The notes under the pieces are model-generated. The model made no database searches. It had not been told where the DNA came from and was given only the letters and a program-made list of their open reading frames with translations. DNA of 32,000 nucleotides, from positions 3,360,001-3,392,000 of the forward strand of contig NZ_CP080507.1 in NCBI RefSeq assembly GCF_019464535.1, read 5' to 3'. Shown here piece after piece: positions 1-32,000 of this stretch. Every line of letters begins with the position of its first letter. The stretch's first letter is position 1. This stretch comes from Horticoccus luteus (GTDB lineage Bacteria > Verrucomicrobiota > Verrucomicrobiia > Opitutales > Opitutaceae). The position numbers and the translations under genes were made by a program.

Positions 1-3000
1 CCGTGCCGGCTTGGATGCCGCCCAAGGTGATGTCGGTCGCGGCGAGGAGGCGGACGTTGCCGCCCGACGTGGCGATTTGCGCGTTGTCGGCGAAGTGGAT
101 CGCCCCCACCCCGGCCACGAGGTTCACGTCGCCGCCGGTGGTTTTGACGTCGGCGGTCGCGTTGAAGGTGAGGTTCGTCGCGCCGAGGAGTGTGATGTCG
201 CCGCTGCCGCTGAGGATATCGGCGTTCGCGGTGAGGTTCGCGGCGGAGAAGTAAACATTGCCGGTGCCGTTCGCGCTGACCGCGGTGTTGTTGGCGAAGC
301 CGTCGTTCAGCGTGAGGTCGCCCGCGATGATCGTGAGGGCGATGGAGCCGTTCGCGGTCGTCGTGAGGTCGGAGAGGGTTTCGGCGGTGAGTGCGGTGGA
401 CGTGAAGTCGGCCGCAACGGCGCGCACGGTGACCGACACGTTCGTGATCGTGAGCGCGTTGTCTTCGAGGAGGCTGATGCCGGCGCTGCCTGCGCTGGCG
501 GCGAGCGTGTCGAGGCCGACTTCGAGCGGGTTGGTCGCGGTGCCGATGCCCGTGCCGGCAACCAGGCGAGCGGCGGACGCGCTGATGTCTTGATAGGTGT
601 CGCCGCCGTCGAGGATCGAGCCCGCGGTGGCGGTCAAGGTGACGGAACCCGTGCCGGCTTGGATGCCGCCCAAGGTGATGTCGGTCGCGGCGAGCAAGCG
701 GACGTTGCCGTTGGAGGTCGCGACTTGCGCGTTGTCGGCGAAGTGGATCGCACCGGCGCTGGCGACCAAGTTCACGTCGCCGCCGGTGGTCTTGACGTCG
801 GCGGTCGTGGTGAACGTGAGGTTCGTGGCACCGAGGAGCGTGATGTCGCCGCTGCCAGAGAGGATGTCGGCGTTCGCGGTGACGTTCGCGGCGGAGAAGT
901 AAACGTTGCCGGTGCCGTTCGCGCTGACCGCGGTGTTATTCACGAAGCCGTCGTTCAGGGTGAGGTCGCCGGCGATGATCGTCAGGGCGATGGAGCCGTT
1001 CGCCGTCGTCGTGAGGTCGGAGAGGGTTTCGGCGGTGAGTGCGGTGGAGGTGAAGTCGGCCGCGACGGCGCGCACGGTGATGCTGACGTTGGTGATCGTG
1101 AGCGCGTTGTCTTCGACGAGGCTGATGCCGGCGCTGCCGGCGCTGGCGGCCAGGGTGTCGAGGCCGACTTCGAGGGGGTTCGTGGACGTGCCGATGCCGG
1201 TGCCAGCAACGAGGCGCGCGGCGCTGGCACTGATGTCTTGATACGTGTCCCCGCCGTCGAGGATCGAGCCGGCGGTGGCGGTCAACGTCACGGAGCCGGT
1301 GCCGGCTTGGATGCCGCCGAGCGTGATGTCGGTCGCGGCGAGGAGGCGGACGTTGCCGCCCGACGTGGCGATTTGCGCGTTGTCGGCGAAGAGGATCGCG
1401 CCCGCGGTGGCCACGAGGTTCACGTCGCCGCCGGTGGTTTTGACGTCGGCGGTCGCGTTGAAGGTGAGGTTCGTCGCGCCGAGGAGTGTGATGTCGCCGC
1501 TGCCGCTGAGGATGTCGGCGTTCGCGGTGAGGTTCGCGGCGGAGAAGTAAACGTTGCCGCTGCCGTTCGCGTTGACCGCGGTGTTGTTGGCGAAGCCGTC
1601 GTTCAGGGTGAGGTCGCCGGCGATGATCGTCAGGGCGATGGAGCCGTTCGCGGTCGTCGTGAGGTCGGAGAGGGTTTCGGCGGTGAGCACGGCGGACGTG
1701 AAGTCGGCGGCGACGGCGCGCACGGTGACGCTGACGTTGGTGATCGTGAGGGCGTTGTCTTCGAGGAGGCTGATGCCCGCGGAACCGGCGCTGGCGGCCA
1801 GGGTGTCGAGGCCGACTTCGAGCGGGTTCGTCGCGGTGCCGATGCCGGTGCCGGCGACCAGGCGCGCGGCGGACGCGCTGATGTCTTGATACGTGTCGCC
1901 GCCGTCGAGGATCGAGCCCGCGGTCGCAGTCAACGTGACGGAACCGGTGCCGGCTTGGAGGCCGCCCAAGGTGATGTCGGTCGCGGCGAGGAGGCGGACG
2001 TTGCCGCCCGAGGTCGCGATTTGCGCGTTGTCGGCGAAGTGGATGGCCCCCACCCCGGCCACGAGGTTCACGTCGCCGCCGCTCGTCTTGATGTCGGCCG
2101 TCGTGTTAAAGGTGAGGTTCGTCGCGCCGAGGAGCGTGATGTCGCCGCTGCCGCTGAGGATGTCCGCGTTCGCGGTGACGTTCGCGGCGGAGAAGTAGAC
2201 GTTGCCGCTGCCGTTCGCGCTGACCGCGGTGTTGTTCACGAAGCCGTCGTTCAGGGTGAGGTCGCCGGCGATGATCGTCAGGGCGATGGAGCCGTTCGCC
2301 GTCGTCGTGAGGTCGGAGAGGGTTTCGGCGGTGAGTGCGGTGGACGTGAAGTCGGCCGCGACGGCGCGCACGGTGACCGATACGTTGGTGATCGTGAGGG
2401 CGTTGTCTTCGAGGAGGCTGATTCCTGCGCTGCCCGCGGAGGCGGCCAAGGTGTCGAGGCCGACTTCGAGCGGGTTCGTCGCGGTGCCGATGCCCGTGCC
2501 GGCGACCAGGCGCGCGGCGCTGGCACTGATGTCTTGATACGTGTCGCCGCCGTCGAGGATCGAGCCCGCGGTCGCGGTCAGGGTAACGGAACCCGTGCCG
2601 GCTTGGAGGCCGCCCAAGGTGATGTCGGTCGCGGCGAGGAGGCGGACGTTGCCGCCCGAGGTCGCGATTTGCGCGTTGTCGGCGAAGTGGATGGCCCCCA
2701 CCCCGGCCACGAGGTTCACGTCGCCGCCGCTCGTCTTGATGTCGGCCGTCGTGTTAAAGGTGAGGTTCGTCGCGCCCAGCAGCGTGATGTCGCCGCTGCC
2801 GCTGAGGATATCGGCGTTCGCGGTGAGGTTCGCGGCGGAGAAGTAGACGTTGCCAGTGCCGTTCGCGCTGACCGACGTGTTGTTGGCGAAGCCGTCGTTC
2901 AGCGTCAGGTCGCCGGCGATGATCGTGAGGGCGATGGAGCCGTTCGCCGTCGTCGTGAGGTCGGAGAGGGTTTCGGCGGCGAGTGCGGCGGACGTGAAGT

Positions 3001-10770: not shown

Positions 10771-13700
10771 AGGCGTCGGTCGCGACGCTGCGAACGGTGA
10801 TTGAGACGTTTGTGACGGTGAGGGCGTTGTCTTCGACGAGGCTGATGCCCGCGCTGCCGGCGCTGGCGGCGAGCGTGTCGAGGCCGACTTCGAGAGGATT
10901 GGCGGAAGTGCCGATGCCGGTGCCGGCAACGAGGCGGGCGGCGCTGGAGCTGATGTCTTGATAGGTGTCGCCCGCGTCGAAGATCGACCCGGCGCTCGCG
11001 GTCAACGTGACGGAGCCGGTGCCGGCTTGCACGCCGCCGAGCGTGATGTTCGTTGCAGCCAACATCCGGACGTTGCCATTGGAGGTCGCGACTTGCGCAT
11101 TGTCCGCGAAGGTGATCGCGCCGGTGCCCGCCACGACGTTCGCGTCGCCGCCGCTCGTCTTGAGATCAGCGGTGGGGTTGAAGGTGACGTTGGCTGCGCC
11201 GAGCACGGTGACGTCACCGGTGCCGCTGAGGATGTCGGTGTTAGCGGTGATCGAAGTGCCCGCCCCACCCGCCTGCACGAGAATGTTGCCGGAGCCGTTC
11301 GCGCTCAGCGCGACGTTGGCGATGCCGCCCGTGCCATCGGAGAGCGTGATGTCGCCCGCGAGCGTGTGGAGGACGATGCTGCCATTGCCGGCGGTCACCA
11401 AGTCGGACAGCGTCGTGGTGGTGGTCAACGTGGTGGCGGTCGTGGCGTCAGCGGCCACGCGGTTGGTCGAGAACGTCGTGACGGTGTCGACGGTGATCGC
11501 GGTCGATTCGAGGAGATTGATGGCGGACCCGCTCCCACCCGTCGTCGTCTGGGCGGCGACGGTGACGAGTTCGGTCTCGATGGCGTTGTCCACGCCGGAG
11601 CCGACGAGGCCGATGGAGGTCTTCGCCTGGAGGCGCGCGGTGCGGCCGAAAATATTCACCTCGGTGGCGGCGCGCACTTTGTTGTCGGTGATGGAACCGG
11701 CGGTCGCGGTGACACCAACACTGCCCCAGGTGGCCTGGCTGATCAGAGTCGAGCCGGCGCGGTCGGTGTTGCGGCGTGCATCGAGGACGCCGAGGGTAAC
11801 GTCGACGGCCGCGGTGAAGGTGATGTTGGCGCCATCGGTCTGTGCGGTGAGCGTGGAGGCCTGGCTGATGCTGCGGGTAACGGCCTCGACGTCGATCGTG
11901 CCAGGCGTGGCAGCAACGATGACGTTGCCGGTGCCGGCGAACACGACATCGCGGCCACCGCGCACGGTGATATTGCCGTTGCCCGAGAGGACCTGCGCGT
12001 TGACGAGGACATCAGTCGAGGTGCTCTTCGCTTCGATGAGAATATTGCCGCTGCCGTTCGCGCTGATGGCGGCAGAGGCGAGGCCGCCCGAGCCTTCGTT
12101 CAACGTGATCGTGCCCGCGAGGGTTTGCAGAATGATGCTGCCATTACCGGCGGTGACCAGGTCGGAGAGCGTCGCGGTCGTGGTGGCGGCGGTCGAGACG
12201 GTGGCATCGGAGCCGACGCGATTCGTCGAGAAGGAAGCGACGGTGTCGACGGCGAGGGCGGTCGATTCGAGGAGGTTGATGGCGGACCCCACGCCACCGG
12301 TCGTCGTCTGCGCGGCGACGGTGGCGAGTTCGGTTTCGATGGCGTTATCAACGCCGGAGCCGACGAGGCCGATGCTGGTCTTCGCGGCGAGACGGGCGCC
12401 GGCCGCGTAAACGTTAACGGTCGAGGCGGCGCGGGCTTTGTTATCCGTGATCGAGCCGGCGGTGGCGGTGACGGCGACATTGCCCCAAGTGGCTTGATTC
12501 GTGAGGGTGGAGCCGGCGCGATCGGTGTTCTTCCGGGCGTCGACGACGCCGAGCTTTACGTCCACCGCCGCGGAGAGAGAGATGTTGGCGCCGTCGGTCT
12601 GCGCGGTGAGCGTCGAAGCTTGGTCGATCGTCCCGGTTTGCGCGGCGACATCGATGGTGCCGGGGGCGGCGAGGACGATGACGTTGCCGGTCGCAGCGAA
12701 GGTAACGTTGCGCTGGGCGAGGATCGAAATGTTACCGGAGGCGGACTTGATCGCGGCGTTGACCAACACGTCAGTCGCGGCCCCGAGCGCCTGCACGAGC
12801 ACGTTGCCGGATCCGGCGGCGGAGATCGCGGTGCCGGCGACGAGGGCGCCGTCGTTCAAAGTGATGGTGCCGGCCGTCGTGCGGATCACGATCGAACCGG
12901 TGCCGGTGCTGGTGACGTCGCTCTTGGTGACCGGCGATGTGTTCACCGAGCTACCGTCGGTTTGGACTTCGGCGATGGCGAAGACCACGGTGGAAACGGT
13001 GAGGGCATCATCTTCCAAGAGGTAAGCGCCACCCGCGCCGGTTTCGGCGGTGAAGGTGCCGATCGTGGTTTCGAACGCGTTGGCGGAAGTGCCGAAGCCG
13101 CCGTTGAGCGCGGAGACACGAAGCGAAGCGGCGACGACGTCTTTCGCGAGCTCACCTGCATCGAGGACCGAGGCCGAAGACGAGAAGAGCTCGACGAAGC
13201 CGCTGCCGGCGTTGAGGCCGGTGACGGTGACATTGCCGTTGGCGCGGTAGTCGATGTTGCCGCCGGCGGTGGTGGCGGTCGTGTCGGCCGCCATCGTGAT
13301 CGTGCCCGTGATGGCCTTGACGCTGATCGCACCGGTGCCGGAGCTGACCAGCAAGTCGCCGCCAGAATTTTGGGCAATGTTGCCGGCCGCGTAGAGGGAG
13401 ATGTTGCCGCTGCCGGAAACGACATCGGAACTGAAGACGACATCTGCGCCCGTCGATTGGAGCAGGACGTTGCCGGCGCCGTTGGCGCTGACGCCGAAGG
13501 TGTTCGTCGGCGTGCCGTCGGTGACGGTGATCGTGCCTGCCGCGACGAGAACGATGCTGCCGCCGGCGGAGGTGACGAGATCGCTCTGATCGGAAACGAC
13601 GAGGTCGCTGGTGAGCGCGGTGGCGGCGACGCGCTGGACGGTCACACCAACGGTGCCGACGGTAATCGCATCGGTCTCGGCAAGCCTGATGCCACCGGCG

Positions 13701-19700: not shown

Positions 19701-22700
19701 ACGCCCGTGCCGGAGCCGAGGACGGTGATGTTGCCGGCCTCGGTGGTGATCGAAATGTTGCCGCTGCCAGCGGCCGAAGTCTGGCTGACGCCCGTCACCT
19801 GGAGGTCGGCGCCGGCGGCGAGTTCGTTGATGATGAGGTTGCCGCTGCCGCGATTGACGGCGGTGACGGTCGTGACGGAGGTGAAGCCGAGGTTGATGCC
19901 GGTCTGCGCCGAGACGTTGAGGTCGGCCGCGTTGATGGGCTCGGACGAAACGCCGTCGGCCGCCGGGTCGTTGAGTTGCGAGATCTGGCCGTTGGCGGAG
20001 TAGAGAACGACGTTGTAGAGAGTCGAACCGGCGGTGCTCAGACGGGCGTTGAGCGTGTTGTTGACGGTGATATTGTTGACGGCATCGAGCGTGAGGTTGT
20101 TCGAGACTTGGAAGACATAGTTGGAATCCGTGAAATCGGACACCTCGATGCTGCCGCCGTAAACGTAGAGCGGATCCTTGAAGCTGACGGAGGATGGCCC
20201 GATGGCACCGATGCGGACGGCACCCGTGCCCGACGCGTGGCCGGAGGTGGCGCGGCCGATGTAGATGCCGGTAAAGCCACCCTTCAGGGCACGAACATCT
20301 GCGTTGGACAGCGTGAACCCGGAGCCGTCGGCGAAGGGCGGATCGGCGATATCCATGGCACGGTTGCTGGTGTAGGGCATCAACGTGATCGAACCGGTGC
20401 CCACGACGGAGTTGGTGGCGCCTTGGAAGTCGATCTCGTCAGACTCGATGGAAATATTGCCGCCGCCATTCACGGTGAGGCCCTTCTCAAAGACGACGTG
20501 GGCGGCGCCGGTGATGGTGAGTTTGCCGTTCGAAATCGTGACCGCTTTGCTAAAGGTAACGGTGCCGCTGGCGTTGATGATGACGTCGCCGTTCATCGTG
20601 AGCGTATCGTCGAAGGAGACGTCTTTGGCGTTGGTGACCTTGAGCCCTTCGAGCGGATCGGTGCCGCCGACGGGACCCTTGAACGTCACGTTGCCATTCG
20701 GAGCGCTGACGATGAGCGAGTCGTCGCCCGGCGAGCTGTCGCCGTCGAGGAAGATGCCGGTGTTGCCGCCGAACTGCACATCGCCGTTTTGCGAGGTGAC
20801 GGTGCGGTTTTGGCCGGAGATGATCACGGAGTCGTTGAACGTGTTGTTCCCCGGCATCGTGATGTCGGCGGAGATCGTCGTGGTGTGGCCGGAACCGTAA
20901 ATGTAGAGCGAGGCGTTGTCGGTGCCGACGAGGTTGTTATAGATGAACACTTCGCCGCCGGCCATCGGGTTGCGCACGATGAGCGGGTCGTCAAACGTGA
21001 TGACGCCCGTGGGATTCGCCTTGTCACCGAGGTAGACGACATGGGCGCCGTCGACGCTGCCGATTTCGATTTGCTGGAATCCGTTCTGCAGGAGCCCGAG
21101 CGCGGTGTTGTCGAGGTGGAACGCGGTGCCGATCGCGCTGAGGAAATCGCCGATGTAGATGGGCGCCGTGCTTTGACGCGGGTGCAAGGTAAGGACGCCG
21201 CCGGGGCTGCTCACCGTGCTGGTGATGTTAACGTTGTCCGCGATGAGGCTGACGTTGTCGCCACCTGCATCGATTGGCGACGCGATGGTCTGGGTGCCGG
21301 TCAGGGAAACGACGCCGGTCGTGCCGCCCTTCGAGCCGCTGCCGCCGGAATCGTTTTGCACGATGATGCCGGCGAGGGCGAAGACGTAGACGGGGAGGCG
21401 GTTCGAGCTGGAGGTCGTGACCTTCGCGGCGTTGATGACGAGAGCGAGCGGGCTGTAGGTAAAGCCGGCGACGGAATCGCCGATCTTGTCGCGGGCGCGC
21501 AAGGTGATGGTGCCGAGCGTGGTGTTGAGATACGGCCCATCGGCGGAGCGGACGGCGGTGCCGTTGGCAAATCCGTGAACGAGGATTTCGCTCAGCGTCA
21601 TGTTGGCGGTGAGGATTTCACCGGTATTGAGATCGACCGTCGCCACGCCTTGGCGGAGAACCCAATCGGTCTCCGGATTGAAGCTGCCGCCGGGCAACCG
21701 CAGCCAGCCCACGACGCTGGCGTTGTTGATGATCGATCCTTGCGAAGCGACGAGCGTGATGTCGCCCGCACCGGCGACCGCGATGCCGTCGGAGAGCGTG
21801 ATGTCGCCGTTGTCGGTCGTGAGGCTGACGCCGCCGCCAGTCGTGACGATCGCGTAGTTGAGGGCGATGAAGGAGTCGGCGCCGCCGGCGTAGAGGGAAA
21901 TGTTGCCGGTCTTCGCGTGGATGCCGGTGCCGCCGATGGTGATCGCGCCATTGGCCGTCTCGATCGAGGTGGTGCCGGAACCGTCCTGAATGATTTGTGC
22001 GAGGATGAGTGCGTCAGCCTCGCGCAGCGCGATGGCGCCATGATGATTATAGAGCGAGAGCGAAGCGACGTTGGTCTTGATCGCGCCGGCGGTGCCGGAA
22101 CCGATGCCGTTATCCGCGCTGAGCACAAGCTTCGCCCCGGTCGCGGTGATCTCGGTGCCGCTATCGCTCGCAGCCAGAATCGCGCCGCCGGTGCTGGTGA
22201 TGACGAAGTCCGCAGGGTTGGTGGTGGTGAGCTTGCCGAGCGTGATGTCGCCTGCGGCGCTGAGAGAGATGAGGCCGCTGCCCGCTTTGACGTTGGTGCC
22301 GGCGGCCATCGTGAGGGCGCCGGTGCCGCCGTTGAACGTCACATCGCCGGCGGTCGTGGTGATCGCGGCCGCGGCGGAGAGATTGAGACCGGCGGCGCCG
22401 AGGAGGCTGATGTCACCGCTCGCGCTGGTCAGAGGCTGCGTCAGTGAGAGTGCGCCCGCGGTCGTCTGGAGATAAATGGCGGCGCTGCCCGTGGTGGTGA
22501 CGGCACCGCTGACGGTCATCGCTCCGCCGGACGTGACGTGGACCGCGGCGTTGCTGGAACTGACGAGGCCGGTGACGGCAACGCCATCGGCTTCGGCGAT
22601 CGTGATCGCGCCACCGGCGGTGACGTTGAGCGTATCGGCTTCGAGGGTGGCGTTGACGGTCGTATGCGCGTTGAGCGTCACGCCGGCGGCGCTGTCGAGA

Positions 22701-25700
22701 TGGTTGATGGAGACGAGGCCGTTGGTGGAGGTGATCGAAACGTCGCCCGTCGTGCCGGCGATATGATCGATGTTGATATTGCCGTCGGCGAGAATGGTGA
22801 GGTTGCCGCCCGCCATCGTGATGGTGCCGATGGAGATGTTGCCGGTTTGGATGATGGTGAGGTTGCCCGTCGAGGTCATCGTGACGGAGAGCGAGCCGAC
22901 GGCGGTCTTGACGGTGAGATCCTGGCCGGCCTGCAAGGTCAACGTGCCGGCGGTGATCGTGCTGCCGAGGGTGATGCCACCGGTCGTGCCGGCGGTGAGG
23001 CTGACCGAGCCGCTGCTGCCGACATTGAGGGTCGAGACGACAATGAGGTCCGTGCCAGCCGTGAGGCTGATGTTCTCGCCACCGTTGGTCGGGAGATTAA
23101 CGACCGAGAGGCTGCCGGCCACGCTCATCGTGAAGTCGCCCGGGGTGCGGGTCGGGAGCACGAGGACGTAATCGCCGGGGAGCGCGAGCGCGCTGCCGCC
23201 GGAGCTTTCGTCGGTGCGCGCGAGGACGGTGAACGGGGTGTTGTCGGCCTCGGACTCGAGGACAAGGCGGCGATTAGCGGAGTCGACGGTGACGGTGATC
23301 GCCTCGCCGGCTTCGATGGACGTTTTGAGCGAAGCGAGAATGCTCGCCCAATTCGCACCGGCCGCGGCGGTGGCCGTGTAGGTGTGGGAGCCGTTGATGA
23401 CGACGTAGAACTCGTAGCCAGTGCCGAACTTGTTGGCGAAATCGATCTGAGTCTTCTGCTTCGCAACCTGGCCTGCGGCTTGAGTCGGCGTGGACCCGTT
23501 GGCGGTCACGCCGTTCTCGACCGGCGTGGTGGAAATCTGGGAGGCGGTGCCGAGGCTGGTGAACGTGGTGTTGTTCACCTTGGCGGTGAGCGTGAGCTTG
23601 CGGTTGGACGCGTCGACCGTCGCGGTGACGACATTACCGGCGTCGATCTTGGTCTTGAGTGCGCCGAGGACCGAAGCCCAGTCTGCCGTGACCCCGCCGG
23701 AACCAATGCTGACTTGGTAAGTGGTGCTGTTGACTTGAACGGTGTAGGTGTAGCCGGCGGCGAGTTGGGACGCGTCGTATTGAATCACGTTCACCTCGGC
23801 GCGACTGAAGCCTGCGAGTTGCGTCGGCGCGGTCGGAAGTCCGGTGATCGCGCCGGCCAGGGTCGCGGCGACGGCGTTGACGACGAACGCGGTGTTCACC
23901 GCGCCTTGGAGCGTGAGCTTCTTATTGGCCGCATCGACGGTCACGGTGATCGTCGGATTGAGGGTGTGGATGAACGTGTTGAGGCCGCCCAGGACATCGG
24001 CCCAGGCCGCAGTCGCGACGGAAACGGCACGGGCGGTGGCGGTGTAGCGATGTTGCGGGTCGGTGTTGATGGAGGCACCGAGGCCGGTCGCGGCAGTGGC
24101 GAGAGAATCACCCGAAGCCGGAGTCCATGAGTATTTGTCGCCGTCGATCGAGATGGAATACTTGTTGGCGGAGCTGATGGTGAGCCCCGTGAGGCTGATG
24201 ATGCGCACGGCGCCGGGCTCGGGTGCGCTGATGGCCACGCCAGACAAACCGGCGAGGTTGGTCACGGCGGTGCCGGTGGTGGTGTCGGTGACCGAGAAGC
24301 GTATGTCGGACAAACTCGCGCCGGTAATGGTGATGTATTCGTTGTCGCCGACGCTGACGGTGTAAGGAGTGCCGTTGACGAAGACGGTGTAGGCCGTGGT
24401 CGAACCGACGGTGCCGCCGAACACAACATCGTTCTTCTGCGGCAATGTCGCGGTCGCGACCTGACTCGGATTGGTGCCATCCTGACTGACGGAGGCGAGC
24501 GCCGTGACGAAGGCGCCGTCCACGCCAAAGGCGGTGTTAATGGCGGTGGCCTCGAGCAGCATTGAGTGCGTCGTAGAGTCCGGCGTGACGGTCACAGCTT
24601 CGCCAGCTTCGATAAGGGTCTTCAGACCCGCGAGGACTGAACTCCAAGCGGCCGTCACCGTCGCCGAACGCGTGGTGGCGTCGTAGGTGGCGCTGGCGTT
24701 GACCTTGCTCGCCAGGTCCGAGGCGAGCTGGGCGATCGTTTCGCCGGACGTGGCCGTGTGCGTGAAGGCGCTGCTGCCGACGGTGAGCGTGTAGGTGGCG
24801 CCGTTGGTGACGGTGAGGCCGCTGAGGTTCACGAGGCGGTAGCCGTGACCGTCCGTGGTGACGCTGAGGGAGGCTTGACCGGCGTCGTAGTTTTGCGCGG
24901 CGGTGGCCGTCGCCGTGATGGCGGCGGTGCCCGCGCCGGCGCTGATGGTGATCTTGTTGGTGGCGGCGGTGGCCGTGTAGGTGGCGTTGGCGTCGATCAG
25001 ACCGGCGAGGGACGTGGCGATATCGGCGAGGGTTTTTCCGGCTGCCGCCACGTAGTCGAAGTCGGTGCCAGCCACCGTCACGCGGTAAGTGCCGCCGGTG
25101 ATGACCGTGACGCCGGTAAGATCGATGGTGCGGGCATCCCCCGCCGTGGTGCCGGCGGCGTTGATGGCAATTCCGGAGCTACCGGCGATGGCCTGGATGG
25201 TGGTGACGCCGAGCCCGATGGCCGCGGTCGATGCGCCGGCGGTGATCGCAATGAGTTGGTTACTGCCGATGCGCACGGAGTAAGCGTGGCCATTGATCAG
25301 CACGGAGTAGAGGCCGTTGGAATCCGGCGTCGAGCTGCTGAACGTGACCGTGCTCTGCTGGTTGGCGTCGTGGCCGGCTTCGATCGTGGGGTAGCTGCCG
25401 TCGAGGGTGGGCGCGGAGACTGGAGCCAGAGTGACGAGATTCACGCTCACGGTGCCGACCGTGAACGGCGTGTTGGCGGCCCGCGCGGTGAGCGTGAGAG
25501 TGCGGCTGACGTTGAGTGAAACGTCGATCGATTCGCCTGCTTCGATCTTCGTTTTCAGGCCGCCCAGCACGGACGAGATTGTGGTATCGATGCCGTCGGA
25601 TCCCGCGGTAACGGCATAGGGGTTGCCGTTGAGGGTGACGGTGTAGGTGTAGCCGGTTTGGACGAGGCTGGAGAAACTGATGGTGCTCGACTGCGGCACA

Positions 25701-28700
25701 GAGGTGCCCGCGGCCGTGATCGGCGTGATCGTCGCTTGGGTGACGGTGCCGGCGGCGGCGAAGATGCCGGCCTGCGTGACGGTGCTGTTGGGATCGAGCG
25801 TGATGCCGCCGCTGGTCGCGGTGTATTTGAGTTCGAGCTCGTTGCCAGTGCCGACGATGGTGGGGTTCAGGATGATCTTTGGCGTGCTCGCGAGCGTGCC
25901 GCGGAGGGTGATGGTGTAGCCAAACACGTCGACGACGTCGTTGTCGTAAGCGCCCGAAGTGTCGTTGTCGTGGCCATTGCTGTCGGCGACGCGGCGTTCA
26001 TAGATCGTCCCGGAGGCGTCGATGATCACATTGCCGTGGAGTTTCTGGGCGCCGGCGATCGCGCCAGCCTCGACGTGGTCGAGGTAGAGATCGCCCGCCG
26101 CCTTGATCGTGATGTCGTCCCCGGCGCGGTCGGCGACGTTGTGCACTTCGCGCACATATTGCGTGCCACCGGAGGTAATCTGAATGCTGCCATCCTGCGC
26201 GATGACCGAATCCACGTAGAGGCCCGTGGCTTCGTTGATCTCGATGTTGCCGGTGGAGGTCGTGAGGGCGTTGAGGCGGTCGATCAGGGTGTTGAGCTGG
26301 ATGCCGTGCGCCGCGTTGACGTTCAGGATGTAGGCGATGAAGACGGACGCGCCATCGGAGACGATCGAGTCGGCGGTGATCGAGAGAACGCCGGACTGGG
26401 CCGCGTCGGCGGCGATGATGCCGCCGAGGACGGTGAGCGTCCCGGCGACGTTGAGCGTGACGTTGCGCGCCGGATCGTAAGCCGAGAGACCGCCGATGAA
26501 GCCCGAGAGCGTCTGGCTGCCGGTCAGCGTGACCGCGATATCAAGTTTCGCGCGCAGTTCAAAGTGACTGGCGGGAATCGTCGCGAGCTGGAGGTTGATG
26601 TAGCCGGAGGGCGCGGTGACGGTGGTGACGTTGCCTTGGCCGGCATTGTTGACGTCGACGGCGGTGGTGACCGGGTTGATGCCCTTCGCGGTAATCTTGA
26701 CGTTATTGATGGTGCTGCCGCTCGCCAGGATGCTGCCCTTGACGATGACGTCGGCACCGGAGGTGAGCTGGACGAGCGTGCTAGCGGTGATCGTGCCGTC
26801 GATGGAGATGGTCGAACCGGTATCGATGATCACGGTGCTCGACGAGATGTTGCCGGGGAGAAGCTGAGTCGCGGCGCCGTTCGGACGGAAGACGAGGTAG
26901 TTGCCGGCGTGGTATTCGGTGAGGTCCGGCCCGGTGAAGAACTTGTAGAGATCGACCACCGTCGCGGCCGAGAAGGCGACGCCGCGCGTGAAGGTGAGCG
27001 AGTCCGTGGAAACCTGCGTCTGGCCCACGATGGCTGCATTGCCAGCGCCGGCGGAAATCGTGACCGTCGCGCCGCTGCCCGTCGCCGTGTAGGTCGCGTC
27101 GGCGTCGATCAAGCTGGCGAGACCGGACACAATCTGCGGCAGCGTGTTGCCGGCGGCTGCGACGTAGTTGAACGCGGTGTTCCCAATGACCACGCGGTAG
27201 GTGGCACCGGTGACGACCGCGACGTCCGTGAAATTGACGGTGCGGGCATCGTTTGCGGTCGCACCGGTGGCGTTGACGAGGATGCCGCTGGAGCCGGCAA
27301 CCGATGGGGCGACGACGGTCACGCTGCCGGCCGCACTGGTGAGGCGAATGGTGTTGGCGCGCACCACGCCGTCTCCGGCAACGGTGAGATTGTTTTGGGC
27401 TTGGACGGCGACGGTGGTTGATCCGCCTGCGGCCGCAGACGAGACCGCTTTGGTGATCCGCAAGCCGACGTTGCTCTCCAGCGCGCCATCGGTCTCCGTC
27501 AGGTTGACGTCTCCGGCCGTCGTTGTGGCGGCCAGGCTGTTAGCGGCGATTTCCAGGTTCGTGATGCCTGTGCTGGCATTAAGCGTGATCACGTTGCCGA
27601 TCACATCGACCGCGGCGTCGTCGGCGGATTCGGTGATCTTTCCACCGGACGAGGTCAGGGTGACATTGCCGGCCGAAGTAAAGCTGGTGACGGCGTTACC
27701 GTTGAGGTCGGTGAGGACGGGCTTGTCGGCAGGAGTGGCCAAGTAGATGCCGGCATTGACGCGGCGCACCAGGATATCGCCGGCCGCGGTGATCGTGATG
27801 TTGTTGCCGGTCTGATTCGAATCGCTGTGCACGTCCACCAGTTCAACCGAGCCCGCCGCGGTGAGGTTCAAACTGCCATTCGCGATCGCAACGGAAGTCA
27901 AGACGAGCGGCAGAGACGTTTGCGTGAGAGTCACGTCGCCCGCTTTCGTGGTGGCGAGCGTAAGCGTGTTGGCCGCGAGCGCGAGGTTGACCGGACCGAA
28001 CGCTGCCACCGCGACGTCGTCGGCGGTGATCGTGCCGGTATGAGTGAGGGCGCCTTGCGCCGAGAGCACCACGTCGCCGCGACCACCGGCGGAAATTGTG
28101 CCGACGGCGATGTTGGCGGAGGCGGGATTCGGATTAGCGGTCGTCGGCACCACCATGTTGGCGGTGAGGCTGATGTCGTTGCTGTCGCTCGTGCCGAGTG
28201 TCTTGACCGAGGTCGCGGTGATGCTGCCAACGGTCGTCACAGCGATCGCCCCGTCGGCGGCGGTGATATTATCGAGCGCGATGTCGCCTTGATTGGTCAG
28301 GCTGATGTTGCCCGGAGCGGAGAGCGTGAGGTTTGCGTGAGCGACGCTGGTGTTGAACTCCAAGGAGCCTTCGGCGGATGCGGTCAGGAGGTTGCCGGTG
28401 ATGTAGCCCACAGTCTGCGTGATCGTGCCGGCGGCGGCGCCCAGGGTGACGTTGCCCGCATCGAGCGTGGAGCCGGTGAGCGTGATGTTGCCGCCCGCGA
28501 GGCCCGCCCGCAGCGTGAGGTTGCCGGCGGAGTTGGCGACGTTGGCGTCGAGAACGGCCAGAATGTTGCCGATGATGCTGCCGGACTTGCTGCTGCTTTC
28601 GCCCGCCAGGAGGCTGATCGAATGCGGCGCGGTGACGGAGCCGGTGAGCGTGACATTGCGGGCGGCGGTGGCACTGATCGTGCCATTGGTTCCGGCGGCG

Positions 28701-31700
28701 GTGACCTGACCGCCGAGCGAAAGATCGGTCCCGGCGGTGAGCGCGATGGTTCCGGCGACGGCGCTGGTTGTCAGATTGGCCGAACTGCCGATCGTGAGCG
28801 CACCACCGGCGGTGAGGGTAATGGCATTGGCGGCTTTCAGCTGCGAAATTGATTCGATTTCAGCGCCGGGAGCGATGGTGCCCTGCACTTGGAGCGAAGA
28901 ACCGGAGGTGATTGCGAGGGTGTCCGTGCCTGTCACCCAACCGCTGAGTTGGACGGCGCCGCCTGCGTTGATGGCGACGGACTTGCCAGCGATGGACTCA
29001 CCCGCGAAGGAACCCGAGAGGAAGGTGGCCGTGGTGTAGGTGACTGCGGTGACCGAAGTCGTCTCCGTGGTCGTGGTCGGAACATCCTGCCACAACGTGA
29101 TGTGGTCGGGCGGATCGTTGACCACGACTTGCTGCTGCGAGGTTTTGTAAACCGGACGGGATTGGTAGATATCCTGGGCCTGGGTCGTGAGAGTGTAGCT
29201 CAACTTGATCCGCTGATCGTAGATCTTATTGGCGTTCGACGTCATCTGGTAGCTGTAGTCGTGCTGCGTCTCAAAGACGTTACCGTAAACGATCAGGCTC
29301 GAGATTTCGTCGTTCCAGTGGTCGCCGATCCACGGATTCGTGGAGTAATCGGTGCGGCTCTCACCGCCGTAGTTGATGTCCCAGTAAAGCACCACTTTCC
29401 GCGTGGTGTCGCCGTTGAAGCTGAGGGAGCTATACTCGTCGTTATGTGAACTCCCGACCCATGACGTGCCGCCGTTGGTGAAGCGGTCGCCGTAACCGCC
29501 AAAATTGATGTGTTGATACATCGTTACGTCCCCGCCGCCTTGACGATAGCCGACGAGAACGTGCGAGCGCGAAGAATCGGTCAACTGGGACAAGGACGCC
29601 GTATGAAGCGTGAGTTCGTCGTAATAGGTCGGAGACGAATAGATGAAATTCTGCCCCAGTCCGTTGTTGATCGAATTTTGCGCCGGGGTCGGGGTCTTCC
29701 ACGTCCACTGGGGATCATAGGTCCGCGTCGGCGTAATCGTGTTTGCACTGGTGCTGCCCGGGGCGACGCCCGTGATCGCGTAGTGCCGTACACCGGTGCC
29801 ATCGAGATAGGAAACCGACCAGCGGGCGGCGCTGTTGTCGTCGTCCCAACCTGTTTGAATGTTAATGCCGAGTACATTCACATACGCGTTCTGATAGGTC
29901 GACTTGTCCTGCCGATAGTACACGTTGCCGACATCGGTGTAGGTGCCGACCACTCCCCCGCTCGGAGTCGTGGGGTTGTTGGCGTCGATGGTAACCCAAG
30001 TCCCGTCGTTGCGGCCATCGGCAGTGGTGTCGCCCGTCAGGTATTGCGCTGGCGCCGAAGTGACCACGTTGGCGATGTCTTTCTGGGCACCGGACGGCAT
30101 GAGGATGTATTTGTCCTTCAGCCCCTTGAGCGGCAGATAATAAACGACGAGCGAGTTACTCGCCCAACTCGGCGTGTACGGTGCTGTCGAGGCAACGCCG
30201 CTGAGGGTTTTATGGTTAACCGGATTGCTGTAGCTGAAGCTGTACAGCCGCATGTAACCAGTGGAGTTGAGCACGGCCTGGCGCTGCGCGTCGTTAAGAC
30301 CGGTGAAATCGAGGTAGCTGTCGGACTTGTAGTCGGAGGTGACCGACGTGGCGGTGCGGCCGAGGTGATCCTCATCGCCGGCATTGGACCAATTGATCTG
30401 ACTATTGAAGTAGTCGACGCCTTCGATGAGGATCGCTTTGTATTTCGAGCCATCCGGCGCGTTCGGGTTATAGTAACCGATCTGCTCCAGACTGATGTCC
30501 ATCGTCTGATACTCCGAGCCCACCTTGACTTGGGTGGTGCCGATTTCCTCGGTGATCGTGGTGTATTCCAAGTGTGACTTGGGCACGACAATTTCACCGA
30601 TGGCTACCTTGGTTGAACCGGTGACTTTGGTGACGGACTGCGTGGTCGTATCGTAAACTGGCACCAACACGGTGCGCTCGCCCGTGACGCTGGCGTCGGC
30701 GGTCAGGATGACATCCCCACCCGCCCGCATCTTGAGTGCGCCGCCGGCCGTCACCGTGCCTTGCCCATTCACTTGAATGGTGCCGCCATGCAAATCGCTG
30801 GTCGCAATCGTGCCTTCAAGCTGGGCGCGCGTCTGCAGCGTGTTGACGCCCGCGTTCATATCCAAGGTGCCGGCGGAATTCACCAACCCGTCGACGTAGA
30901 GAAGGGAGTTCGCATTGATCAACATCCGCCCGGTCGTCGCCGTGACCTTTACGATGCCTTTGACGTAGATGACGTCGGCCGCAAGGTGCACCAGCGTATC
31001 GCCGATAATGATCGACTCGGGATGCGTGAGATCGACCTTGCCGTTGAGGAGGATGCTTTGCCGACCGTGGAAATAGTTGTCGGCCCCGCTGGCGGTTGCG
31101 TAAACGTGGCTGCCGGCGACGAGATTGATGCTGCCACCTTCGATCGCCACGTGGTCGCGGATATCGATCGTGCTGGTGATAATGACGTCGCCGCCGGTCG
31201 AATTGATCGTCAGCGAGGAAACCTTCGCGGCGGACGCAGGATTGCTCGGGTCGACCAACTGGCCGAGTACACCTTTAACCAGAATCGTATCGACGCCCGT
31301 GAGCGTGATGCTGCCCCCCGCCGCCGTGTCGACCGTGCCGCCGGTCAGTCGGTCGCCGTTGGCATCGAAGGTGAACTCATTAATATAGATCGAGAGGTGG
31401 GTGCCGTCAGTGCCCCCGGTGATGGAAACTTGATCGTAGGCGGAAACGAGATTGTCGATCAGGACGAGAGAATTGGAGAAGAGCGTTAGATCCGAACCGA
31501 TGTTCGCGGCCTGCACGACGCCTGAGATCTGAATATCGCCCGTGGTGCGGACATCGATCGACCCACCGGTGATAGTGTTGGCATCGGTCCATTGGCCCTG
31601 ACCTGACCGATCAAGCAGAATTGAGCTCAGATCCAGCACCGCGAAGCCGATCCCGTTCGCATCCATGCCGGATTGAATCTGGATGGCCCCTGAGGCCGCG

Positions 31701-32000
31701 AGGTAGCCGCCGGCAGGCACAACAGCGAAATTGGCGTCCAAGCCGTTGCCGCCAAGAATCACGGATTGTGTGCTGGTGATATAGAGATTCGAACCGGCAC
31801 CGGTCCACGAAACATCGGTGGTGTCGCTGTCAAAATCCGAGCCCGCGATCACGCGCCCAACGATGACAATACTCTGGGCTTCAAGGCGGATCTGGCTGGC
31901 GGCCCCCGAGGAGAGGATGGAGGCGTCCGCGCCGATTTGCAGCGCGCCGGCGGCGGTGATCGCGACCGCGGAATTGCCCTCCAACGTCGCGCCCATTGGA
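1..32000 (-). CDS. Internal fragment (10,666 complete codons, open at both window edges) of one giant beta-helical repeat protein. Probably a secreted fibre or adhesin of the beta-strand-repeat / filamentous-haemagglutinin-like class.
   Basis: I hand-translated more than 60 sixty-nt rows spread across the window: 31999-31740, 31500-31380, 30720-28920, 27300-27000, 26940-26880, 25980-25920, 25680-24480, 24180-24060, 22500-22440, 21720-21060, 20400-20220, many rows between 17100 and 11460, and 300-1. All read in the same phase and give coherent beta-strand repeat sequence, for example PMGATLEGNSAVAITAAGALQIG and GNVRLLAATDITLGGIQAGTGSVTLTATAGSILDGG. Third codon positions are mostly C or G. An ATG lies at 31996-31994 in this phase, yet the track lists no minus ORF in this phase. 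That is only possible if no stop follows it inside the window. The long + ORFs start at 11, 5195, 5909, 9083, 10379, 10958, 17585, 18689, 22538, 24758, 25658, 27827, 28889, 29510 and 30761. All are 2 mod 3, which is the in-phase antisense of this frame. Confidence 0.92.
10771..11283 (-). repeat. Degenerate proximal copy of the 648-bp unit, marking the transition from the diverged modules to the homogenised array.
   Basis: It stays in register with the array but has many substitutions. Its protein reads ..TADLKTSGGDANVVAGTGAITFADNAQVATSNGNVRMLAATNITLGGVQAGTGSVTLTASAGSIFDAGDTYQDISSSAARLVAGTGIGTSANPLEVGLDTLAASAGSAGISLVEDNALTVTNVSITVRSVATD. Confidence 0.7.
11284..12802 (-). repeat. Two tandem copies of a 759-bp (253-codon) variant of the super-module.
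   Basis: Matching anchors lie at 11284, 12043 and 12802 (..gttgccgg[ac][gt]cc..), and the hallmark segments at 11511 and 12270 are both 759 bp apart. The two proteins align along their whole length. An example pair is TLTAQTDGANITFTAAVDVTLGVLDARRNTDRAGSTLISQATWGSVGVTATAGSITDNKVRAA against TLTAQTDGANISLSAAVDVKLGVVDARKNTDRAGSTLTNQATWGNVAVTATAGSITDNKARAA. Confidence 0.85.
14600..17290 (-). repeat. Two copies of a 1,344-bp (448-codon) di-module. Type A and type B super-modules alternate.
   Basis: The anchor gtgccgccggtgcc sits at 15723 and at 17067, and the anchor aggaa[cg]aggcc sits at 15057 and at 16401. Both pairs are exactly 1,344 bp apart. The proteins align, for example GGAANTKGDLVTTGGTIDVQAGTTITMFDGNSATTTNANIRYFSG against GGAANTAGDISTTGGTIDVSAGGNIAMFDGNSATAANANIRYLAT. 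A partial third copy continues towards about 14300. Confidence 0.8.
20190..21200 (-). other. Two related units of the form short beta-helix block followed by LTL.P....I.IG ... L..L..GF..I.IG. They resemble modules I recall from filamentous-haemagglutinin-family giant proteins.
   Basis: Direct translation of 21195-21020 gives LTLHPRQSTAPIYIGDFLSAIGTAFHLDNTALGLLQNGFQQIEIGSVDGAHVVYLGD. Direct translation of 20400-20200 gives GSITLMPYTSNRAMDIADPPFADGSGFTLSNADVRALKGGFTGIYIGRATSGHASGTG. The family assignment is from memory only and has not been searched. Confidence 0.5.
21750..23150 (-). other. Regular beta-helix segment with short coils of about 18-22 aa.
   Basis: Translation gives repeats such as NISLTAGTDLIVVSTLNVGSSGSVSLTAGTTGGITLGSTITAGTLTLQAGQDLTV. 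Row 22441-22500 was read directly as VTTTGSAAIYLQTTAGALSL. Confidence 0.7.
23200..25700 (-). other. Array of about 8 small (60-115 aa) strand-strand-helix-strand modules of at least two subtypes. Family not recognised.
   Basis: Rows 25680-24480 were translated directly, plus spot rows at 24000-23941, 23700-23641 and 23400-23341. The helix-type motif [WI]..[VI]L..L[KN]T.I recurs five times: ISSVLGGLKTKIEAG near 25585, AAWSSVLAGLKTLIEAG near 24640, AAWADVLGGLNTFIHT near 24000, ADWASVLGALKTKIDAG near 23680, and ANWASILASLKTSIEAG near 23350. Each is preceded by Y.Y.V.[VL]NG..Y.V and followed by [IV]TVTVD..N..L.L.....NT.F.V. The second subtype is exemplified by GDARTIDLTGVTVITGGTYRVTVAGTDFDYVAAAGKTLADIATSLAGLIDANATYTATAATNKITISAGAGTAAI at 25150-24880. 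Confidence 0.75.
27010..27290 (-). other. Isolated copy of the second alpha/beta module subtype, embedded between beta-helix segments.
   Basis: Direct translation gives GILVNATGATANDARTVNFTDVAVVTGATYRVVIGNTAFNYVAAAGNTLPQIVSGLASLIDADATYTATGSGATVTISAGAGNAAIVGQT. By eye it shares roughly 60 percent identity with the module at 25150-24880. The DNA is also visibly homologous. Confidence 0.8.
27330..28985 (-). other. Beta-helix segment between the globular insertion and the first alpha/beta module.
   Basis: Translation gives coils such as NAITLTAGGALTIGSSANLTTSAVAGTIALTAGTDLSLGGQVTAAGTNGTISATAARNVTLTGS. The hallmark IGNVITLNASTGITNLEIAAN was read directly at 27600-27541. Confidence 0.7.
28990..30670 (-). 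other. Non-repetitive globular insertion of about 560 aa that interrupts the beta-helix. It is lower in GC and rich in Tyr, Trp, Asn, Gln and Lys.
   Basis: The region was translated row by row with no stop or frame change. It begins ..TGERTVLVPVYDTTTQSVTKVTGSTKVAIGEIVVPKSHLEYTTITEEIGTTQVKVGSEYQTMDISLEQIGYYNPNAPDGSKYKAILIEGVDYFNSQINWSNAGDEDHLG.. It continues ..YYRQDKSTYQNAYVNVLGINIQTGWDDDNSAARWSVSYLDGTGVRHYAITG.. and ends ..YKTSQQQVVVNDPPDHITLWQDVPTTTTETTSVTAVTYTTATFLSGSFAGESIAGK. Spot GC counts are 31/60 in row 29581 and 33/60 in row 29641, against 43/60 in row 1-60 of the array. Confidence 0.85.
29285..29530 (-). other. Beta-gamma-crystallin domain with two Greek-key motifs and both Ca-binding-type N-D-x-x-S-S motifs.
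   Basis: Codon-by-codon translation gives VTMYQHINFGGYGDRFTNGGTSWVGSSHNDEYSSLSFNGDTTRKVVLYWDINYGGESRTDYSTNPWIGDHWNDEISSLIVYG. The signature Y-x4-[FY]-x-G occurs twice, as YQHINFGG and YWDINYGG. Each is followed at the expected distance by N-D-E-[YI]-S-S-L-x-[FV]. Confidence 0.85.
30680..32000 (-). other. Irregular beta-helix at the N-terminal side. The frame continues past the right window edge.
   Basis: Direct translation of the following rows gives these sequences. 31999-31900: PMGATLEGNSAVAITAAGALQIGADASILSSGAASQIRLEA. 31800-31741: GAGSNLYITSTQSVILGGNG. 31500-31381: IGSDLTLFSNSLVLIDNLVSAYDQVSITGGTDGTHLSIYI. 30720-30661: GGDVILTADASVTGERTVLV. Confidence 0.7.

Follow-up and report, generated by a model that had tools for sequence, protein, structure and literature searches.

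A 32-kb window of Horticoccus luteus DNA lies inside one giant minus-strand gene with homology to LEPR-XLL proteins

The stretch analyzed here, hereafter called the window, comprises 32,000 nucleotides (nt) of Horticoccus luteus DNA (RefSeq assembly GCF_019464535.1, contig NZ_CP080507.1, positions 3,360,001 to 3,392,000 of the forward strand) and falls entirely within a single giant, intact minus-strand gene that encodes at least 10,666 amino acids (aa). Our favored reading, to which we give a probability of roughly 0.75, is that this is an intact giant LEPR-XLL gene and that its product is a beta-solenoid fiber protein exported by an apparatus made of a SecA-like ATPase, an M50-HlyD fusion protein, and a TolC-like channel.

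A stop-free frame across the whole window

An earlier note on this DNA, made from the letters alone, had claimed that a single minus-strand frame runs through the entire window, and six-frame translation bore this out. The frame whose first codon occupies + coordinates 31999 to 31997, with codons spanning a lower coordinate of 2 mod 3 to an upper coordinate of 1 mod 3, contains no stop in 10,666 codons, and the other five frames of the 32-kb window contain 24, 109, 202, 202, and 913. Equivalently, no TTA, CTA, or TCA on the + strand has its first base at a coordinate equal to 2 mod 3. From base composition, about 223 stops would be expected in the minus frame, and the probability of finding none is approximately 1e-98. 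The GC content of this frame at codon positions 1, 2, and 3 (0.573, 0.536, and 0.872, respectively) is the signature of a real gene in a genome of 66% GC. Genes longer than 30 kb are rare; the window holds a single uninterrupted open reading frame (ORF) above the 30,000 bp that mark large and giant genes, and it is open at both ends. The encoded protein is rich in A, T, G, L, S, and V, is strongly acidic (830 Asp plus Glu versus 309 Lys plus Arg), and lacks cysteine entirely. Methionine and tryptophan codons are also scarce, numbering only 35 and 27 among the 10,666 codons.

The alternative that GC-rich repetitive DNA gave rise to the stop-free frame incidentally, with the real genes on the + strand, draws on the ORF listing of the window, which contains + strand ORFs only, ten of them ranging from 341 to 2,099 aa, the longest (2,099 aa) at 10958 to 17257. 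That listing leaves out ORFs that run past either window end, and the minus frame is absent from it because it is open at both; the earlier note had correctly taken the unlisted ATG at 31996 to 31994, which is codon 2 of the minus frame, as a sign that the frame was hidden in this way. The + strand ORFs lie almost wholly in the frame with 24 stops, which is the in-register antisense of the minus frame and in which GC peaks at codon position 1 (0.872). Its 24 stops match one for one the rare sense codons of the minus frame that read as stops on the opposite strand (22 TCA, 2 CTA, and no TTA). Because the antisense-frame stops map exactly to these codons, the + strand ORFs are shadows of the minus-strand gene. 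Given also that the minus frame has homologs, a confidently predicted fold, and a signature of purifying selection, the + strand reading is effectively refuted.

The signature of selection comes from the low-coordinate ~11 kb of the window, where a repeat recurs with a spacing of 648 nt throughout, without any frameshift, in an array that leaves the low window end. Pairwise nt identity is 83 to 99% among 17 units taken on the sense strand and 88 to 99% when the units are taken in the + strand register. Among the 17 full copies, variable columns number 47, 22, and 114 at codon positions 1, 2, and 3, respectively, the ratio of synonymous to nonsynonymous codon differences is 4948:1826, and mean aa identity reaches 93.8% versus a mean nt identity of 91.0%. 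The minus frame is translated, as indicated by the purifying-selection signature that this third-position bias among the repeats provides. The last 17 units were recently amplified, and at least 28 tandem 216-aa units follow the conserved module described below. Identity among the copies is mosaic rather than graded with distance (copies 6 and 8 share 99%, copies 2 and 12 share 96%, and copies 3 and 13 share 96%, within window positions 1 to 11016), which suggests recent multi-unit duplications or gene conversion, so that copy number may differ between strains. Tandem Repeats Finder, with a longest period of 500, is blind to the 648-nt unit.

Repeats this similar raise the concern that the gene is real but that its length in the window was inflated or otherwise misrepresented by assembly, a concern fed by the 88 to 99% nt identity of the 17 copies, by the one pair that reaches 99%, and by the continuation of the array past the window edge. 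Collapsed or chimeric assemblies usually give identical copies or frame breaks, whereas here every copy has its own substitution pattern (mean divergence of ~9%), the period is exactly 648 nt with the frame maintained, and substitutions favor third positions. Relatives from other assemblies likewise bear long arrays. We consider a misassembly of this kind unlikely.

Homologs and the LEPR-XLL family

An exhaustive phmmer search of cluster-representative proteins with aa 3400 to 4599 as the query returned 728 homologous representatives at an E value of ≤1e-3 and 203 at ≤1e-30. Their lengths reach 7,902 aa, and the best 150 are 30 to 47% identical to the query. What defines the family is a module (aa 3590 to 4300) that shares 30 to 45% identity over ~700 aa with at least 60 representatives. 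In many relatives the match to this module begins at residue 60 to 140, right after an N-terminal LEPR-XLL motif, and in others (P0116 and L050) thousands of residues separate the motif from the module downstream, as would be the case in the window gene. Many relatives start with M...LE(P/S/A/Q)R(I/V/L)LLSADP, and the NCBIfam model NF012209 (LEPR-XLL, "LEPR-8K," ~24 aa) matched all four complete relatives tested with 27 to 31 bits against a cutoff of 17. A methionine followed by the LEPR motif opens 43 of the 150 best representatives, and a motif search found the motif in the ORF upstream of the module at 10 genome loci. The module is itself homologous, at 30 to 45% identity, to NF012209-positive proteins (P0021 to P0027 and others), which ties the body of the window protein to that of LEPR-XLL family members.

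At the other end of the proteins, relatives share an extreme C terminus of the form ...(D/E)(Y/F)W-x-E-x-(L/I/V)-x-(L/I/V), for example, FDYWLEDLVL or DYWLEDLVL, a feature outside the curated NF012209 model that occurs at the end of 15 of the 150 best representatives and is possibly a secretion or anchoring signal. A segment reading ...DGRTHFYLLDG..MYEQAV, for which there is no Pfam match, precedes this tail in P0008, P0012, P0023, P0024, P0027, L002, and others. On these comparisons, the window protein would belong to the giant LEPR-XLL family, with its N-terminal motif and C-terminal tail predicted from those of its relatives.

Two homologs, P0014 and P0015, are collinear with window aa 100 to 4300 at 35 to 55% identity, including the globular region and its crystallin domain. 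P0014 lies on a 100-kb contig (L051), where it is preceded by an overlapping ORF of 7,663 aa whose end aligns with window aa 12 to 119 at 43% identity; the two apparently form one gene split by a frameshift. A window gene of the L051 design would reach ~7,500 aa further upstream, and this, together with the departure of the 648-nt array through the low end, agrees with the earlier claim that the gene is cut at both edges. The closest collinear homologs are split into adjacent or overlapping ORFs in both L051 (7,663 and 5,294 aa) and L052 (1,519, 1,697, and 4,701 aa); these splits are probably assembly frameshifts, and database lengths therefore understate true gene size. A relative of 14,524 aa on L002 (JGI Ga0528792_000630) has the same repeats, module, and C-terminal tail, and its gene is followed by an Lcl_C lipoprotein gene and then by a second LEPR-XLL gene.

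A scan of species-representative genomes located the module in 47 loci. Of the 43 loci examined, 34 have an ORF that continues without a stop across all 10 kb upstream of the module, so that a typical gene of this family exceeds 20 kb. Most of the 47 loci belong to Pseudomonadota, with Burkholderiales and several gammaproteobacterial groups represented (Massilia, Rubrivivax, Hydrogenophaga, Leptothrix, Limnohabitans, Pelomonas, Pseudomaricurvus, Methylococcales, and Hydrogenophilaceae), and the best match among them (46%) is an Azospirillaceae metagenome-assembled genome (MAG). Further loci were found in Desulfobacteraceae, Halarcobacter and Sulfurimonas (both Campylobacterota), Planctomycetota, Cloacimonadota, Chlorobiaceae, Verrucomicrobiota, and Bacteroidota. 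Members of the family include the Chlorobium sp. MAG protein P0009 (MBV5304619.1) and the Chlorobiaceae locus L041. Tandem family genes are common, as on L002, in Halarcobacter CP182352.1 (L025 and L028), in Massilia sp. IC2-278 (L013 and L016), and on L042; in a complete genome, a gene of at least 7,100 aa is followed by SapC and then by a second LEPR gene. These layouts resemble the order sapC, giant, tolC, giant reported in Chl. chlorochromatii.

A word-indexed protein search returned one match and then six, all of 1,286 aa or less, despite the presence of relatives of 3,000 to 7,900 aa in the collection and even with fragments of such proteins (3,000 to 6,000 aa) in the query alignment. 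Giant proteins thus appear to escape word-indexed searching, which may hide similar genes elsewhere. Since ordinary ORF listings miss such genes as well, recognizing them averts their misannotation as antisense junk ORFs.

Fold, domains, and predicted export route

The earlier suggestion of a beta-helix is matched by structure prediction. Two consecutive repeat units (aa 5742 to 6190) were modeled with AlphaFold2 from an alignment of the protein's own 20 unit pairs, giving a predicted local distance difference test score (pLDDT) of 93.2 and a predicted template modeling score (pTM) of 0.92. According to DSSP, this model contains short strands only, in a recurring pattern of about three, and on its evidence the repeat unit is a beta-solenoid. 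The module (aa 3560 to 4010) was likewise predicted to be all-beta, with a pLDDT of 79.9 and a pTM of 0.84. With these two segments modeled and the rest judged by composition, most of the window protein reads as a long beta-solenoid. Coil length, estimated from the DSSP strings, is ~25 to 28 aa; autocorrelation of hydrophobicity gave no clean coil period. Non-solenoid domains account for ~2,000 aa, and the solenoid is estimated at ~8,500 residues of the window. From this coil length and residue number, the part of the protein encoded in the window would alone span on the order of 0.15 micrometer, so that the ~0.2 micrometer proposed earlier was right in its order of magnitude and somewhat high in its value.

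When the repeat and module models were compared with the PDB by Foldseek, no match reached an E value of 0.001 and all E values were above 0.1. The weak top neighbors (CsgA, Ag43, IgA1 protease, EtpA, HMW1, HxuA, MpAFP, and RsaA) are, with few exceptions, secreted proteins of the beta-helix, beta-roll, or amyloid type. The secretion domains of EtpA, HMW1, and HxuA among them, the long beta-solenoid itself, and a subthreshold Fil_haemagg_2 match (E value of 0.007) in the C-terminal region of one relative would fit a type Vb two-partner secretion (TPS) exoprotein of the FhaB/CdiA/HMW1 kind. TPS exoproteins are beta-helical fibers whose N-terminal TPS domain directs their export through a TpsB barrel. 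However, no Haemagg_act/TPS or Fil_haemagg match was found in the window, which does not include the N terminus, or in three complete relatives; the complete relatives matched only LEPR-XLL in NCBIfam and nothing relevant in Pfam. The annotated ORFs flanking the relatives include no TpsB/ShlB-type gene and instead encode OEP, HlyD, M50, and SecA-like proteins. An exoprotein of this kind is thus very unlikely. A classical (type Va) autotransporter, which would have a C-terminal beta-barrel translocator domain, was also considered and is not favored: the C-terminal regions (450 to 600 aa) of five relatives (the window itself has no C terminus) showed no Pfam autotransporter match, nor did they contain any other Pfam domain above threshold.

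The earlier note had also recognized a beta-gamma-crystallin signature, which proved to belong to a complete domain. In phmmer comparisons with the PDB, aa 825 to 907 matched over their full length with flavollin (3hzb; E value of 8e-6, chain residues 3 to 87 of 90) and clostrillin (2e-4), and spherulin 3a followed at 0.085. Pfam Inhibitor_I36, a member of the crystallin clan, scored 21.8 bits against a cutoff of 21.1 when the domain was scanned alone. The Greek-key pattern Y/FxxxxY/FxG occurs twice, as YQHINFGG at aa 828 and YWDINYGG at aa 872, and each key carries the pattern N/D-N/D-x-x-S/T-S, as NDEYSS at aa 853 and NDEISS at aa 896. By these sequence criteria, the segment is a canonical two-Greek-key beta-gamma-crystallin domain of the predicted Ca-binding type.

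Ca-binding-type motifs in a giant, acidic, cysteine-free, repetitive protein could also indicate a classical, RTX-adhesin-like substrate of type I secretion, such as LapA or MpIBP. Substrates of this type are exported C terminus first by an ABC transporter, HlyD, and TolC, and the relatives of the window protein do share a conserved acidic-hydrophobic tail at their extreme C terminus and have adjoining TolC-like and HlyD-like genes. On the other hand, the 10,666 aa contain no GGxGxDxUx nonapeptide (the C terminus lies outside the window), HemolysinCabind was found neither in the window nor in the complete relatives, and the repeat unit has a solenoid rather than an Ig-like fold. In addition, there is no ABC transporter among the annotated genes of the linked cluster, which has a SecA-like ATPase and an M50-like protein instead (PMC4452313). 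We regard a classical type I substrate as improbable and favor export of a LEPR-XLL solenoid protein by that cluster.

Beside family genes with visible ends, Pfam and NCBIfam searches identified a recurring set of genes encoding a TolC-like OEP protein, an HlyD protein, a GAF-HlyD protein, a Peptidase_M50-like HExxH membrane protein fused to HlyD (M50-HlyD), and a truncated SecA-like ATPase of 660 to 710 aa. The latter contains SecA_DEAD, PPXD, and P-loop domains and scores far below the SecA and SecA2 equivalog cutoffs. SapC and Lcl_C lipoprotein genes often adjoin family genes as well. Adjacency to the SecA-like/M50-HlyD locus was seen for relatives L014, L024, L031, L018, and L053. The order is OEP, HlyD, GAF-HlyD, M50-HlyD, SecA-like, Lcl_C, giant gene in L014 and L024; giant, SapC, OEP, HlyD, GAF-HlyD, M50-HlyD in L031; and giant, SecA-like, OEP in L018. 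In the complete Halarcobacter genome (L025 and L028), SapC stands between two giant genes.

The association was also tested in reverse, starting from M50-HlyD in metagenome contigs. This yielded 80 loci, 52 of which have an adjoining SecA-like gene with gene order kept. Among the SecA-like-bearing loci of at least 12 kb, 21 of 32 have an ORF on the same strand that continues past the end of the locus, and 20 of these 21 ORFs are at least 800 aa long, the remaining one having 489 aa and a LEPR motif. Thirteen of the 21 start with a LEPR motif that lies downstream of the SecA-like gene at a distance of no more than 6 kb, and six of the giants beside the cluster match the hidden Markov model (HMM) of the window's module. 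Kamneva, Poudel, and Ward (PMC4452313) reported the cluster in 2015 as related to type I secretion and as including a secondary SecA_DEAD protein, gave its function as unknown, and named no cargo; none of the literature searched ties the cluster to giant or LEPR-XLL proteins. We tentatively suggest, at a little under even odds, that a distinct, unnamed export pathway across both membranes is dedicated to LEPR-XLL giants, the window protein among them, as its cargo. In this pathway the SecA-like ATPase and M50-HlyD would replace the ABC transporter, and LEPR-XLL would be a leader recognized, and perhaps cleaved, by the M50-like component. This cargo-machine link, which comes from the relatives rather than from the window, may be the most interesting by-product of the analysis: it gives the orphan SecA-like/M50-HlyD/TolC cluster a testable cargo and the giants a testable export route.

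Under the favored reading, the complete protein would carry the 24-aa LEPR-XLL motif at its N-terminal end and the conserved tail at its C-terminal end, as in its complete relatives, and its solenoid would be interrupted by the crystallin-bearing globular region, by an array of 90-aa domains, and by the ~700-aa module. The protein would be exported across both membranes through the TolC-like channel with the help of two HlyD-type adaptors, one of which carries a GAF domain, while the M50-like membrane protein fused to HlyD and the truncated SecA-like ATPase would stand in for the usual ABC transporter. LEPR-XLL is in this case a candidate signal that the M50-like component may recognize or cleave. 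Once outside, the protein would form a fiber of ~0.15 micrometer or more on or beyond the cell surface, with a folded form that Ca2+ may stabilize, and the fiber may mediate contact with surfaces or other cells.

Several points weigh against this reading. Both termini lie outside the window, so that the LEPR-XLL motif, the tail, and the export genes are all predicted from relatives at 30 to 55% identity. The fiber or adhesin role is derived from fold class and analogy, and no binding or catalytic domain other than the crystallin domain was recognized. The copy number of repeats that are 88 to 99% identical may be wrong if the assembly is a short-read one. A giant ORF accompanies only about two thirds of the cluster loci that have enough flank, several family genes (L016 and L051) show no export genes within their visible flank, and no experiment ties the SecA-like cluster to any cargo.

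The features of the window protein are collected in Table 1. When the whole protein was scanned against Pfam and NCBIfam, first in large pieces and afterwards in ten smaller ones, the marginal crystallin-clan match was the only one to exceed its threshold, and the globular region had no Pfam or PDB match apart from its crystallin domain; P0001, one of the relatives that keep this region, shows 43% identity. For the 90-aa domain, present in about ten whole or partial copies, Pfam gave only a subthreshold DUF7800 match and the PDB no significant sequence match (E values of ~1). Two of its three nonsignificant PDB matches are the phage major capsid protein 9b40 and the "major structural protein" 8frs, which may echo the "HK97 folds" reported for Cag_663 (10.64898/2026.03.19.712371). 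A partial 216-aa unit was located at aa 3187 to 3338 with the unit HMM (independent E value [iE], 7e-14).

Table 1. Features of the protein encoded across the window. Residues are numbered in the window frame; the high + coordinate of residue a is 31999-3(a-1).
Feature	+ coordinates	Strand	Basis
Stop-free frame, 10,666 codons, open at both edges	2..31999	-	0 stops versus ~223 expected; GC at codon position 3, 0.872; 728 homologous representatives
aa 1-440, irregular repeats, solenoid-like by composition, extending upstream of the window	30680..31999	-	Translation; weak self-similarity to later segments
aa 441-1000, nonrepetitive globular region	29000..30679	-	No internal repeats; kept in collinear P0014, P0015, P0089, and P0001
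aa 825-907, single beta-gamma-crystallin domain inside the globular region	29279..29527	-	phmmer versus PDB, Pfam, motifs
aa 1001-1560, T/A/G/S-rich, solenoid-like by composition	27320..28999	-	Many weak self-matches; collinear with P0014, P0015, and P0017
aa 1574-1664, first copy of a ~90-aa unclassified domain	27008..27280	-	jackhmmer versus own protein, iE 6e-24
aa 2091-2928, about nine more whole or partial copies of the 90-aa domain	23216..25729	-	jackhmmer domain table
aa 2950-3400, solenoid-like by composition	21800..23152	-	Self-matches; ends in a partial 216-aa unit
aa 3590-4300, family-defining conserved module with GSGHTT, VRIGAI, and LEVYGG motifs	19100..21232	-	Homology to at least 60 representatives
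aa 4341-6920, eleven diverged tandem units of 216 to 253 aa, older part of the array	11240..18979	-	Unit HMM, iE 1e-14 to 1e-35
aa 6921-10666, 17.3 tandem units of exactly 648 nt (216 aa)	2..11239	-	Unit HMM, ~420 bits each

Comparison with known systems

NF012209, the model by which LEPR-XLL proteins are recognized, names the motif only, without an attached function. The bodies of these proteins are homologous to the window protein, with 30 to 47% identity over 700 to 1,200 aa, and the 24-aa motif of the window gene, if present, would lie outside the window. As in flavollin (3hzb), clostrillin (3snz), and spherulin 3a, the window holds one two-Greek-key domain with a Ca motif in each key; unlike in those proteins, the domain, with its predicted Ca binding, sits inside a protein of more than 10,000 aa.

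The long beta-solenoid contact fibers FhaB, CdiA, HMW1, and EtpA resemble the window protein in overall fold, and the structural resemblance is weak. They differ from it in that no TPS domain or Fil_haemagg repeats were found in the window, and the N-terminal motif and gene neighbors of its relatives are of another kind. LapA and MpIBP have in common with the window protein and its relatives their size, acidity, lack of cysteine, tandem repeats, Ca elements, and TolC/HlyD-type partners, whereas the window protein has no RTX nonapeptides and is built of solenoid rather than Ig-like repeats, and no ABC transporter is found among the annotated linked genes. The locus described by Kamneva et al. 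shows the same gene set and order as the cluster that adjoins members of the window's family; the 2015 paper names no cargo and makes no mention of giant genes, and the window holds none of the cluster genes (PMC4452313).

Compared by their reported architecture alone, the closest studied analogs would be the Chlorobium chlorochromatii giants Cag_663 (36,806 aa) and Cag_665 (20,647 aa) (Kuzyk et al. 2026 preprint, 10.64898/2026.03.19.712371). Both are reported to have an N-terminal LEPRxLL, hemagglutinin-like beta-helical repeats, and sapC and tolC-like neighbors, Cag_665 to carry a beta-gamma Greek-key motif, and both to have been detected as proteins and found in the partner bacterium (10.64898/2026.03.19.712371). 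An "MtxA-like" annotation has been reported for the Chlorobium proteins as well. Their LEPRxLL start is like that of the window's relatives, the Greek-key motif of Cag_665 is like that of the window, and the sapC and tolC-like neighbors are like those of relatives L031, L025, and L013. The window differs from them in its recently amplified array of 216-aa units, and the needle-injection model proposed for the Cag proteins gains no support from the window analysis.

In a broader survey (West-Roberts et al. 2023 preprint, 10.1101/2023.11.21.568195), proteins of at least 10,000 aa were termed "large" and those of at least 30,000 aa "giant," with examples from Omnitrophota and other phyla. The window protein falls in the "large" class and has beta-helix filament segments and an adhesion-type reading in common with the proteins surveyed. 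Those were reported with many transmembrane regions and an internal SecA_DEAD domain (10.1101/2023.11.21.568195), whereas no SecA_DEAD was found in the window and the SecA-like ATPase is a separate neighboring gene in the window's relatives. Giant genes of this kind are known and widespread, if almost without experimental characterization, and the window adds a further member to them.

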